A DNA stretch of 64,000 bases from Mobula hypostoma (Eukaryota): positions 29,142,001 to 29,206,000 of the forward strand of contig NC_086108.1 in the NCBI RefSeq assembly GCF_963921235.1, written 5' to 3'. The notes under the pieces are model-generated. The model searched no databases. It was not told the origin of the DNA and was given only the letters and a program-made list of their open reading frames with translations. Within the stretch, counting starts at the first letter, position 1; each line of letters begins with the position of its first letter. Positions 781-51,115 of the stretch are shown here, piece after piece. The position numbers and the translations under genes are program-made.

Positions 781-848
781 CCAACTTTCAACTTGATTAT
801 GGTTGATCTTCTGTCTCAAATCCATCTTCCCCAACCTATACAAATAAT

Positions 849-953
849 GGGGTCCCCACCTGGCACTCAGCTCTCACCTGTGGCTCCCCATAGCTGTGCG
901 ACAGCGGCCACACCCCGGGCAACGGCTTCGACAAGCCGGCTAAACCAGGTGAG
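849..953 (+). ncRNA. Candidate HDV-like self-cleaving ribozyme
   Basis: P1 GGGGT(849-853)/ACCCC(912-916); P2 CTCACCTG(873-880)/CAGGTGAG(946-953); P3 GGC(882-884)/GCC(907-909); L3 begins TCC; GG-GCAAC follows P1; P4 GGCTT/AAGCC; J4/2 GGCTAA. Folded manually only. Confidence 0.5.
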
Positions 954-1323
954 GGTAGCCGACGGGTCTCAAACCCTCAGTGAGATAGGGAGTTGTCTAT
1001 CCCAGCATGTGAAGACAGACTCCGGCGGATTGAGCGGATGAGACCAATGGAAGGTCCAACGGTCAAGAAGGTGGTCTCTGTAAGCGTCGTGGAATGTGTA
1101 GAGCAGAACAAGACACAGAAGACGTCCTGGTCATCCACTGCGCCTAGTCCCATCTCCAGCCGTCTCGACTCTGTCTTGCCACTGGACCCAGATGGGAATT
1201 GGGAAGAGAGAGTGAGGCTGACGCTGCGCAACTCTCCCTCACTTAAATCCAAGTCACGCGCTAGTCTCGACACCATCAATAATGGTGTCGAGGTCCTCAT
1301 CGACGTACGATGGACGAACAAGA
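849..1323 (+). mobile_element. Non-autonomous retroposon, 475 bp, possibly RTE-partnered
   Basis: 12-bp direct repeat TATACAAATAAT at 837-848 and 1324-1335. The interior is GC/CpG-rich relative to its flanks. 11-bp 3' stem at 1266-1276/1282-1292. The family assignment is inferred. Confidence 0.7.
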
Positions 1324-2271
1324 TATACAAATAATATGCAGCCCTTTGAGCAGAAATGCGTGTCATTTTCAAGCGTGAGCTTGCATGGGTGCCTGATGTT
1401 AAATGAGCTGCAGCAACAATATATGGATCTGATTTGACATGCAGCACATTGTAAAAGTTCATCTTGTGTCACTAAAGCTAGTGAAGAAACTGCTGAGTTT
1501 TGTAGGCTTAGGGGCTTCTTTTAGGTGCATTGCATTCTCATGCCGTAGGTTTCAGATGGATTTATTTTTTACTCCCCACTAGATAAGTACCATCCGAAGT
1601 GGTGACGTTCATTTAAATTCCAGCAAAGCATTTACTGACATGTAATTTCCAACCCACATTTGATGAGCTCCAAGTATCATTTCCAAGTAGAAATATTGAA
1701 ATCAGTGTGATTTTGGAAGACTTGATGAGCCCAGCGTGCCTCAGTTCTAGTGGGATGAATCCTGCTTTACTCTATTCCCACCCACACGGTGAACATCAGC
1801 ATCATTTTCTGATTGCAACCTTTTCAAATGTATAATGATAGTCTCATGTTGGGAGATGATTTCTCTTTCATCTGACTGGCAATGTTGCAGAATAGATTAC
1901 CTACTCATGGCAGAATTTACACTGTCTGCATCCTATTTCCACTGCTTAGATACTACAATGGGCAAATAATATTAGGTTTTGGGCCAGATGGCAAGAAAGA
2001 AAGGTCTCCATCCTATTAAAATGGTTTAACTAGTAGGGTTGGAAGAATCAATGAAGCCATGATTAAGGAAGTTAGCTGCATTTGTTTAATACCACAGTAG
2101 AGTTCTAATGACATCGAATGGCATTACAATGGATGGTCATTTTTTGTCTCTCTCAAACATTTCTACCAGATTGACCCATAGAAGGAAGCAAATGTTTATC
2201 AATCAAGTGGCAGTGAACTTCAGGCTTAGATTAGCAGCTATGTGAAGGCATAGCCGAAGACTGGGCATGAA

Positions 2272-7040: not shown

Positions 7041-9199
7041 AACTCTGATCTCAAACCTCCACTGCTGTGTGGCTGTACCCACTCAAGGGGAAGGCTAAGG
7101 GAGTGAACCCTGAGGAAAAATCTGGAGCTGGAGTCCCTAAGGCAGTATCAAATTGATTTCAACACTGATTGGCGACTCCTGTGTCACTGCCACTGCCAAA
7201 CTGTATTGGTCCCCGTCGTTCCTTTGGATTCATCAGCTACGTGGAGAGGGGGAGCTAGCTGCATAGGCAGCAAGCTTTCTTTCCATAGTGTTCTGCCCCG
7301 GCTTGCGTATCATGTGGATAGCTAGGATGCAATATCCATGTCCAACCTCGAGCAACGGAGGGCCTGGTTACGTTAGACCAAGGGATCATTCATATTCACC
7401 CGAGAGCGTGGAGACTGGGGTGTCAGCTTAAAGCCCCACTTAAAATTCTTTATTTAGCATTGTTTCACATCACCTCTGACTTATTAGATTCAACAATCCA
7501 ACTGAAAATAAATTTAACTATTATCTATGTCAGTGAAAACAACAGAGTTAAGAGCACCTCTTCCAGTTTGACTATGGGCTTCATTTATCATCTGCTGAAA
7601 GGTATTCTGAAACAACATAATAAAAAAGGTAGTTACTTTACCAGATCATGCTACCCTGTAATTTCTTTTCACTGGGAGGCAGTGCTATGATGTAATTTTT
7701 CAGCTAGCTGATGTCATCCATTCCACCTAAAAGCAGTTGGCACTGCTCAGCAGGAATAAAGGGACATCAATCACACCCAAGCAATCCAGTTGACAGAGGA
7801 AAACATTACCAATGCAGTGAGCTAATCCTATTTGTTATCAAGGAATTAGAAAATTACTCTTGAAAGTGGAACATACCAGAGTAGATTAGGAAAGATTTTT
7901 CAGAATAGGAACCATAAAACAATTTCACAAAATGAAATTATATTTCACCAACAAACTGCTACCCCGGAGATTTATCTAGTGTTTAGCTCGGATGCAGACA
8001 TAAAGGTCTCCATGTTTCTATGATTGCACTACATTGATTGATTTATGATGAAGCAGCATTAGTGTATATCCTGATTAACATGATATCACCAGTTATTTAA
8101 TAACAAGCTGTATACATAAGGGACCAAGTGTGAAGAATGAACCTATTGAGAAGCTAATGCTGAGAACATCCTTTTCTTAAAGACAATTCTCGGGATGGTG
8201 AGGAAGAAGAGGAGTGACTTTCAGCATGTGGCCCCCAACCAAGGAAGGCTGTGCTCAATCATGTAAGGGAAAATTGCAAGTGCACTATACATTATCTTTT
8301 GATATGTTTATTGCAATGGTTTGGAAAATCCTGGGGAATAAATTACACAAGTTCCCAGTGTGTCCTCCCAAATAGGACACTGATCCTACTCCGAGTAGTT
8401 CTGTGGAAAATTAATCGCTCAATGATTTTAGAAGGAAGGTGGATGACTTTGTAATGGGTCACCCACGGTGTTCAAGTTTGCTTTACCCTCTTATGAAATG
8501 AGGACATCATCAGGAAAACCATAATTTAATCCCCATTCCTAAATTACCTTGGTAGGATGATACTGAACAACTAGATGGCATTTCAGATGACGGTTAAATT
8601 CTGCCATGTCGCTTGAAGTCTGGAGATGTATTGACCTTACTTTCTTAAATTAAAAAACATTTTGAGACCTCATCCACTTCTTGACCTCACTGAAGGATTA
8701 GACTTTTGAAGTGGCATCTCCTGTATGGAAATCAAAGTTCCTTAGTTGCTTTGGGCTAGATTGCTAAATTGCATTGATTGCTATTGGAAGAAATCGACAA
8801 GGATACTTCCTGTGTGGGTTAGCCATCACTGGAAAGAAAGAGAAGATGTAATTTGAGGATATATTTTGCCCAGGTAGAACAGCATGCTGGGATAGAGAAA
8901 TTACACTTCATTCCATATTCAACAAAGCTGCAGCAACTCTAGGAACATCTCATTATGGGGCTGAAAAACTTAACTTCTTCATCATTATTCCCACTCATCA
9001 TGATAAATGAGAATACCAGGAGAAAATCAGTCTAAAGGGCTGCACATTTCCTATACGCAAATTTACATACTCCTTTCAACTATTAAACCAGTTCAATTAA
9101 AGATCAGTGTTTTCAGCTCACAGTAAGTAAAAATTCTATATTTTTGTTCCAATGGTCAGAGTGTTTCCAGGAGAAGTGTTTGACAGCTTCACTCACCTG

Positions 9200-9362
9200 A
9201 GCGGTAGGGTGGTGATACATTACCACCAACAGAGGTGTAAGATTCTTCTCCTCTCCACTGTCCTGCAGGTCACCCGTGGGTAAGGTGTAGCTCCTGCTTA
9301 GCCCCATGATCAGGGTCAGGTGAAGCCATGGGAGCAGGTGGTGGATGGTCGTGTGAGCATCC
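9200..9362 (+). mobile_element. 5' part of RTE-like short element (same family as 11812 and 50757)
   Basis: Shares CTGCAGGTCACCC..GGG.AAGGTGTAGC.CCTGCTTAGCC..GATCAGGGT..GTGAAGCCATGGGAGCAGGTGGTGGATGG with the other two copies. Confidence 0.7.
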
Positions 9363-11659: not shown

Positions 11660-12572
11660 GAGAGGGAGATGACTTCAGTCCATTGAGCCTATATTGGCTC
11701 ACAGAGCAATCTTATTCTCTCACAAGTTTTACCTGTAGCTCCTCATTCCTTTCAAACTCTACCACTCACCTATATGCACTGGTGGTAATTTACAGGGGAG
11801 AATTAACCCCACCGGGGTGGCGGAGTGGAGATACGTCTCTACCAAAGGAGGTGTAAGGCACTCCTTCTCTCCACTAGCTTGCAGGTCACCCTTGGGCAAG
11901 GTGTGGCACCTGCTTAGCCTCTGATCAGGGTGATGTGAAACTGTGGGGTCAGGTGGCGGATGGTCATATAAGAAGCTGCTGCATAGCACAAGTCCTGGTT
12001 ATGCAACCACTGATGACAGGCAAACAGCCTCTGGAGAGTATTGATAGTGGCTAGGATCTCCCATCCTGTAAAGACACTGCCCAGAAGAAGGCAAGGGTAA
12101 ACGATCTTGGTAGAAAAATTTGCCAAGAACAATGATGGTCAAATACCATGATTGCCCACGTCACACGATGCAGCACATAATGATGACGATGACATAACCT
12201 ACCACAAGACCATAAGACGTGGGAGCAGAATTAGGCCATCTGAGTCTGCTCTGCCATTCGATCATGGCTAGTCCTTTTTGTTTAAAATCTCCTTCTCAAC
12301 CCCAGTTCCCGGTCTTCTCCTCGTAAACTTTGATGTCATGTCCAATGAAGAACCTATCAATCTCTGACTTAAGTACACCAATGACCTGGCCTCCACAGCT
12401 GCATGTGGCATCAAGTTCCACAAATTCACCACCCAGCCAACCTGCATGTCTTTGGGAAATGGGAGGTAATCCGAATAGGTGCACAGAGAGCATGCGCATG
12501 GACAGCACCAACACTCGGGATTAAGCCTAGCTCACCGGTGCTGTAAGGTAGCAGCTACAACTGTGCTGCCCA
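11660..12572 (-). mobile_element. Old V-SINE split by an RTE-like element (11812-12192) and a CR1 3' end (12203-12430)
   Basis: GGTAATTTACAG..AATTAACC (~11785-11810) continues as ACCAGCCAACCTGCATGTCTTTGGG... after 12430. The CR1 3' end reads LKSEIDRFFIGHDIKVYEEK. Confidence 0.55.
11812..12192 (+). mobile_element. RTE/BovB-related non-autonomous element, most complete copy
   Basis: Three copies in the window. GAAGAAGGCAA(T)GG(C)AAAC 3' motif resembles Bov-A/BovB ends. Short (TGA)n-like tail. Confidence 0.6.
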
Positions 12573-50756: not shown

Positions 50757-51115
50757 GGCTTTGGGTGGCAGGGTGGAGATATGTCTCCACCAAAGGAAGT
50801 ATAAGGCACTCCTTCCCTCTGCTAGCCATTGGGCAAGGTGTAGCACCTGTTTAGCCCCTCAGTCAGGGTCATATGAAGCCATGGGAGCAGGTGGTGGATG
50901 GTCATATAAACAGCTGATGCACATCACAAGTCCTGGGGTTCTGCGACTACTGACACCAGGCAGACAATCTCTGGAGAGCATTGATAATGGCTGGGGTCAC
51001 CCAACTTGTAAAGACACTGCCCAGAAGAAGGCAATGGCAAACCAGCTCTGCTGAAAAATTTGCTAAGAACATTCATGGTCATGATTATCTATGTAATACA
51101 ACACGGCACATAATG
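50757..51115 (+). mobile_element. RTE-like non-autonomous element, third copy
   Basis: Colinear with 11812-12192. Confidence 0.7.

Follow-up and report, generated by a model that had tools for sequence, protein, structure and literature searches.

The window, a 64,000-nucleotide stretch of the Mobula hypostoma genome, contains a short retroposon, 849-1323, which is the sole copy of its family (family A) inside the window. A preliminary description, made from the letters alone, placed a candidate HDV-like ribozyme with an extra L3 hairpin at the very start of this element. The strings and pairings on which it was based (the TSD, P2, P3, CC886-887/GG917-918, P4, C940 and the L3 hairpin) are all where it put them, and G849 is indeed the first base after a 12-bp TSD. 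The assignment to the RTE type was also right, as both the 5' UTR and the 3' tip match autonomous RTEs. The parts of the element are listed in Table 1.

Table 1. Parts of the retroposon copy at 849-1323 and its flanks, in window coordinates.
Feature	Position	Strand	Remarks
Whole element	849..1323	+	family A copy (bipartite non-autonomous RTE retroposon, family length ~560 bp), without family nt 6-86
Left TSD, 12 bp	837..848	+	TATACAAATAAT; TSD search
Right TSD	1324..1335	+	second copy of TATACAAATAAT
Remnant of P1 5' strand	849..853	+	family nt 1-5 (GGGGT); predicted cleavage site 5' of 849
Deletion joint	within 851-853	+	GGT microhomology; alignment to full-length copies
Orphaned 3' arm of the family J1/2 (P1.2) hairpin	854..872	+	can compete for the P2 3' strand
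P2 extension	870-872 with 954-956	+	fold
P2 5' strand	873..880	+	partner 946-953
P3 5' strand	882..884	+	partner 907-909
Enlarged L3	885..906	+	U20/C21/C22 equivalents 885-887; G25 equivalent 890 mutated to A
Hairpin inserted in L3, 5 bp	893..905	+	loop 6 nt shorter than in the family
P1 3' strand	910..916	+	perfect complement of family nt 1-7
P1.1 GG and J1.1/4	917..922	+	GG917-918 opposite CC886-887
P4 hairpin, 6 bp	923..938	+	923-928/933-938; most covarying stem
J4/2 with candidate catalytic C940	939..945	+	HDV descriptor as quoted in PMC6326823
P2 3' strand	946..953	+	partner 873-880
Rest of RTE 5' UTR	957..1275	+	end approximate; 77% alike to the L127 5' UTR, 75% to the autonomous RTEs of this genome
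RTE 3' terminus and worn (CAA)n tail	1292..1323	+	identity of the terminus to the final ~40 nt in autonomous RTEs ~85-87%

Family A has at least 2600 copies and thus numbers in the thousands genome-wide. With 849-1323 as the query, a search of the element's own genome (3.5 Gb, 200 contigs) yielded 3801 candidates at first look; the top 39 apart from the query are 95-96% alike to it. An internal 18-mer of the family has 2600 exact genomic matches and the first 18 nt have 1098. Other copies begin with GGGGTGT and reach ~83 nt further upstream than the query does. Eighty distinct copies were gathered in three ways, by best score, by position order and by best 3' end (one of the rows, L033, was picked in error and begins at nt 9). 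The preliminary description had proposed that 5' ends should cluster at the equivalent of G849, and they do: the alignment starts at nt 1, the first P1 base, in 43 of the 80 copies and at nt 1-4 in 54; in the set picked by 3' end alone, 15 of 29 copies reach nt 1-4. The upstream flanks are unrelated, apart from a T at -1 in 30 of 41 5'-complete copies, which might reflect an untemplated A, added to the cDNA and used in priming. This T is mostly the last base of the TSD and is sometimes one extra base (e.g., L005, L016, L054).

Copies of family A are flanked by TSDs and are made of an RTE 5' UTR joined to the last ~40 nt of an RTE and a (CAA)n tail, with no ORF2. Because the 5' UTR and the 3' tip are common to autonomous RTEs, the family is, by its sequence, a bipartite non-autonomous RTE. 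The clade we take to be RTE from the single APE-RT frame of the autonomous elements, their C-terminal CPTC motif and the general features of RTE proteins. An autonomous parent that continues past family nt ~500 was not found by pattern search of the genome, where the nearest autonomous RTE is 75% alike. An open frame of ~113 codons (window 984-1334), present in most family A copies, was rejected as a gene: it has no Pfam match and 16 unnamed weak matches, and is not conserved as a protein in comparison with L127. At 1266-1292, where the 5' UTR part meets the 3' tip, the two 11-bp arms of a perfect inverted repeat enclose a 5-nt loop. Two adjoining family A copies stand in tandem at L062 (G000:C1:21776735 and 21777311), and the copy at L023 has an inverted 5' part.

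The family majority folds in silico into a nested double pseudoknot, with P1, P1.1, P2, P3 and P4 in HDV order, as do the sister lineages described below. P1 (nt 1-7/149-155) has seven of seven Watson-Crick pairs, and J1/2 is 98 nt long and forms one long hairpin (z -2.4). P2 has 8 bp and is extendable to 11, P3 has 3 bp, P1.1 is CC/GG, P4 has 6 bp and J4/2 is GCUAAAC. L3 consists of UCCCCGUA followed by a 19-nt hairpin and a G; the hairpin enters two bases after the conserved G. The whole core (P1, P2, P3, P1.1, P4 and the U/G/C key residues) is kept in 15 of the 54 5'-complete copies. The L3 U..G reverse wobble (U20 and G25 equivalents) retains its U in all 54 and its G in 52, and the C75 equivalent in J4/2, followed by NAA/RRA as is usual in HDV-like ribozymes, is C in 49; this C is also kept in the majorities of families B, C and D and in L127, L130 and L142. 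The HDV topology, the P1 3' strand, the position of the catalytic C and the L3 hairpin of the preliminary description are thus right for the family, as judged from intact copies and relatives. Within family A the core has decayed by 1.4% and J1/2 by 1.5%; these changes represent decay after insertion, and are therefore uninformative on structure. Between lineages, identity is 82-90% in the core vs. 74-86% in J1/2, so that the core is not clearly more conserved.

Sister families were first hinted at by contigs of other organisms, which cannot show where transcripts start. A motif search of the own genome gave 679 matches, of which the 30 loci read belong to two families, B (of middle age) and C (old). 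A pattern scan of metagenomes gave 30 matches; four are true relatives in host DNA (L127, L130, L151, L142), and the other 26 were dropped as chance matches. L127 has the same 5' structure as family A, L3 hairpin included, and a 5' UTR 77% alike to family nt 3-517. It also carries an open APE-RT frame of 972 aa up to the end of the locus, with the Pfam domains RVT_1 and Exo_endo_phos.

Covariation was assessed in an alignment of 12 natural copies from six lineages (three A, four B, two C, L127, L130 and L142); the pairing of L130 and L151 at P3'/P1' was taken from this alignment and not from the anchor parser. Of 455 cells, 94.3% are paired, and 6 of 38 pairs show double changes (one in P1, one in P2, three in P4 and one in the J1/2 stem). 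The change in P1 (pair 2, G-C to U-A) is due to L127 alone and that in P2 (C-G to A-U) to L142 alone. Pairing and double changes are matched by 0-1 of 500 shuffles, a test that related sequences can pass over shuffles and that here draws on few independent lineages; slid controls drop to 32-49% paired. The covariation sought by the preliminary description is accordingly present in P1, P2 and P4, and absent from P3, P1.1 and four L3-hairpin pairs, which are invariant in the 12 copies. At the fifth hairpin pair both U-A and U-G occur, and the hairpin loop differs in letters and length. The constancy of P3, P1.1 and the L3 hairpin is partly built in, since the motif searches that gathered the relatives selected on the 5' strands of P3 and of the hairpin, and one also on the 3' strands.

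A purpose-written descriptor, composed after the fold had been seen, was passed from nt 1-2 by 17-18 of 42 family A copies, 5 of 7 family B copies and 2 of 2000 shuffles. Anchor-based parsing left out 1 of the 42 family A copies and covered 17 of the 30 B/C loci. These results bear on the possibility that the pairings arose by chance in a repeat rich in G/C. In its favour, the fold of the window stretch by itself is no better than that of shuffles (z -0.94), and Rfam ribozyme models (E<=10) match neither the window, nor three full-length copies, nor two copies of the hairpin-less family D. Since the models miss the canonical D form as well, they lack sensitivity for long-J1/2 forms. The double changes in three stems, the canonical sister form, the placement of 5' ends at the first nucleotide of P1 and the rarity of passing shuffles all argue against chance, which is very improbable and already largely refuted. 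Support for a ribozyme comes from the family, and not from the window copy alone. A second short retroposon family is present in the window (~9199-9270, ~11815-12170 and ~50763-51100), with TSD-like flanks and a TGA/AAC-repeat tail; it has a G-rich start that finds its complement just before GGGCAAG, and the descriptor found no HDV fold in it.

The window copy departs from the family form. Alignment to full-length copies shows that family nt 1-5 are fused to nt 87 onward, leaving an 81-nt gap whose ends share GGT. The downstream 18-mer is preceded by GG(GG) in only 2 of its 2600 exact genomic matches, the window copy and L032; the latter has a 59-nt gap that starts from another GGT and has the same right end. 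Internal deletions of at least 8 nt occur 12 times among the 80 family A copies. From these alignments, nt 6-86 were most likely lost by deletion from one GGT repeat to another, and G849 is probably the true first base of the family. Plain 5' truncation with two added G was the first reading; it gave way to a deletion after the alignment. It remains a less probable though plausible origin, as short untemplated additions are present at other family A junctions.

The 81-nt loss removed the last two P1 bases, which explains why P1 has five of seven pairs in the window copy (849-853/912-916). The preliminary description gave P1 in this form, which is correct for this copy and does not hold for intact ones. 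The predicted P1 duplex energy is -8.1 kcal/mol vs. -11.8 kcal/mol in the family. The 5' arm of the J1/2 hairpin was lost as well, position 890 is A where 52 of 54 5'-complete copies have G, and the L3 hairpin loop has been shortened. Owing to the 81-nt loss, A890 and the deletion in the hairpin loop, the window copy is probably inactive as a ribozyme; an incomplete P1, a missing J1/2 hairpin and the loss of the conserved L3 G make it a poor candidate for activity. The ribozyme candidate thus stands for the family form and not for the form seen here. It could be argued that the window copy is an active minimal ribozyme, for which five P1 pairs and a short J1/2 suffice. Its remaining P1 does pair, P2 is still predicted at 0.79 in its fold, and R2 ribozymes are described as tolerating a P1 of as little as 4 bp, or one with 1-2 mismatches at its top (PMC3774820). 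Such activity is quite unlikely, however, given that the same L3 G-to-A change abolished cleavage by the Nasonia R2 ribozyme (PMC3774820) and that a short unstructured J1/2, here 17 nt, is the slow configuration in the account of PMC4908430. In addition, the leftover J1/2 is predicted to mispair with the P2 3' strand, and the form is unique and therefore never spread.

L3 is 26-28 nt long, with the hairpin, in families A, B and C and in L127, L130 and L142, and has the HDV-type length of 7-8 nt only in family D. This hairpin-less sister is an autonomous variant represented by seven copies from the own genome, one of which (L233) is 4.2 kb long with a 1024-residue frame piece. Its L3 is UCCUCGU, the canonical 7 nt, and its J4/2 is CGAA; P3 and the P1 3' strand are as in the hairpin families, and P4 is different. 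Family D was left out of the covariation alignment, where MAFFT misaligned it, and was parsed by anchors instead; its continuous 10-bp P2 has a further double change (C-G to U-A). These features match the HDV descriptor quoted in PMC6326823, which anchors the reading of the hairpin form. Five of the seven D copies (L227, L228, L230, L231 and L232) are without the first three P1 bases and have in common an upstream C-rich tandem-repeat flank of varying length, on four contigs. The other two have the whole P1 5' strand and unrelated flanks. A common flank would be expected if loss of cutting lets the flank travel along. Nine hairpin-less matches of families A-C were found genome-wide and set aside; eight are scattered deletions in old copies and one is unrelated.

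The hairpin form might be a structural relic. In that case its fold would descend from an HDV-like ribozyme such as that of family D, cleavage would have become slow or ceased because of the L3 hairpin, and the main role of the structure would now be to fix the 5' end as an internal promoter, translation or RT-binding element. L3 belongs to the active site (PMC4908430), P3, P1.1 and the hairpin are without double changes, many autonomous copies do without the ribozyme, and the 5' structures of R2 and L1Tc are credited with such extra roles in the relevant passages of PMC6765202. We consider a relic unlikely. The equivalents of U20, C21, C22, G25, GG, C75 and AA are kept in all hairpin-bearing lineages while L3 positions 23-24 and J1.1/4 vary, and an apparently intact autonomous RTE (L127) carries the hairpin together with a compensated P1.

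Taken together, we read 849-1323, with good confidence, as a non-autonomous RTE copy that has lost an internal segment and is likely inactive, from a family whose intact copies begin with a predicted HDV-like self-cleaving ribozyme with an extra hairpin in L3. By the example of known HDV-like ribozymes, the element would be read through from a host transcript, and its RNA would fold into a double pseudoknot in which the ~98-nt J1/2 hairpin holds P1 beside the extended P2. The hairpin and the long P2 may help cutting, by analogy with the ribozyme treated in PMC4908430. The RNA would then cut itself 5' of G1 by means of Mg2+ and the C940 equivalent; once trimmed, it would be reverse-transcribed, in a target-primed manner, by the protein of an autonomous RTE that recognizes the common 3' tip. 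The L3 hairpin lies 3' of the conserved U..G pair and would be tolerated, projecting away from the active site. By comparison with HDV structures, the side of L3 where the hairpin enters would face solvent.

HDV-like ribozymes are known at RTE 5' ends (Ruminski et al., 2011, as cited in PMC5786205, PMC3774820 and PMC6765202). A close counterpart is drz-Agam-2-1 and its RTE relatives (PMC4908430), which likewise belong to the RTE clade and start at element nt 1, and have a long structured J1/2 (P1.2) and a P2 extended to about 11-12 bp; in drz-Agam-2-1 these two features speed up cleavage. Unlike the known RTE ribozymes, family A has the L3 hairpin, resides in a vertebrate-type genome, is mostly non-autonomous, lacks an Rfam match and is known from sequence. 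R2 ribozymes share the topology, the conserved L3 U..G, the catalytic C, a long J1/2 and a variable P4, but are specific to a site in rDNA; they vary in J1/2, P4, P1, P2 and L3 spacing, and an L3 hairpin is not among the variations in the available text of PMC3774820. NARTc, with the Pr77 ribozyme of L1Tc, is also non-autonomous, with LINE 5' and 3' ends and the 5' ribozyme region kept, but is of another clade, Ingi (PMC3185411). RTESINE and WALLSI3, too, are bipartite non-autonomous LINEs that keep the 5' region, here with a proposed ribozyme (PMC5786205). The HDV ribozymes (genomic and antigenomic) and CPEB3 share GGGCAA after P1 and an L3 beginning with UCC, and their J4/2 is like that of family A (GCUAA) or of family D (GCGAA); their L3 is given as 7-8 nt in the sections of bioRxiv 10.1101/2022.09.22.508989 that bear on it, vs. 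the 26-28 nt of the hairpin families.

The passages of PMC4908430, PMC3774820 and the bioRxiv paper that treat HDV-like variation assign it to J1/2, P4 and J1.1/4, with an L3 of 7-8 nt. Full-text literature searches found no published L3 hairpin; the figures or supplements of Ruminski 2011, Webb 2009, and Webb and Luptak 2011 may show the lineage. The kind of element is thus known, an HDV-like ribozyme at an RTE 5' end, and the hairpin inserted in L3 is apparently unreported, with a prior description possible. A broader proposal can be made: that an active HDV-like ribozyme with a stem-loop in its catalytic L3, adding a fourth insertion site to J1/2, J1.1/4 and P4, exists in a widespread RTE lineage, invisible to published descriptors and Rfam; that one vertebrate-type genome has hundreds of cleavage-competent copies; and that ribozyme loss in autonomous sisters drives the capture of new 5' ends. 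Taken jointly, these statements are tentative and fall somewhat short of probable. If true, the HDV fold would be widened by a natural hairpin inside the active-site loop, for which the hairpin-less sister in the same genome is a ready control, and the hairpin site could be a new place to graft aptamers or tags. Because descriptors with an L3 of 7-8 nt would miss the lineage, self-cleaving RNAs in vertebrate genomes may be undercounted; the possible scale can be seen from the 15 of 54 sampled 5'-complete copies with a whole core and the 1098 copies with the exact first 18 nt. Bipartite RTEs are known, and 5' ribozymes in them have been proposed, but not tested, in PMC5786205; with family A one could test whether such ribozymes account, as proposed, for the frequency of bipartite non-autonomous families derived from RTE elements.

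A search with the L127 protein revealed an abundant autonomous family in the own genome, which is 75% alike to family A over family nt 232-510 and 85-87% over the last ~40 nt and tail. One of its members, L192, has a 1129-residue frame ending in the CPTC motif. In 26 of the 30 autonomous copies read, the 5' half of the ribozyme has been replaced; the ribozyme is thus not needed for RTE mobility in this genome. These 26 (among L196-L225; see also L162-L191) retain only the P4 3' strand, J4/2 and P2'; the junction lies inside the P4 loop, and the sequence joined there is GC-rich or a tandem repeat. In a further large group of autonomous copies the junction is downstream of the P4 loop. One of the added 5' pieces resembles captured coding sequence (L196, L207). 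In two host contigs (L130, 3240-4311, and L151) the 5' UTR of a relative appears, from its sequence, to be fused directly to a ubiquitin-protease-like frame, which looks like the capture of a host cDNA by the element.
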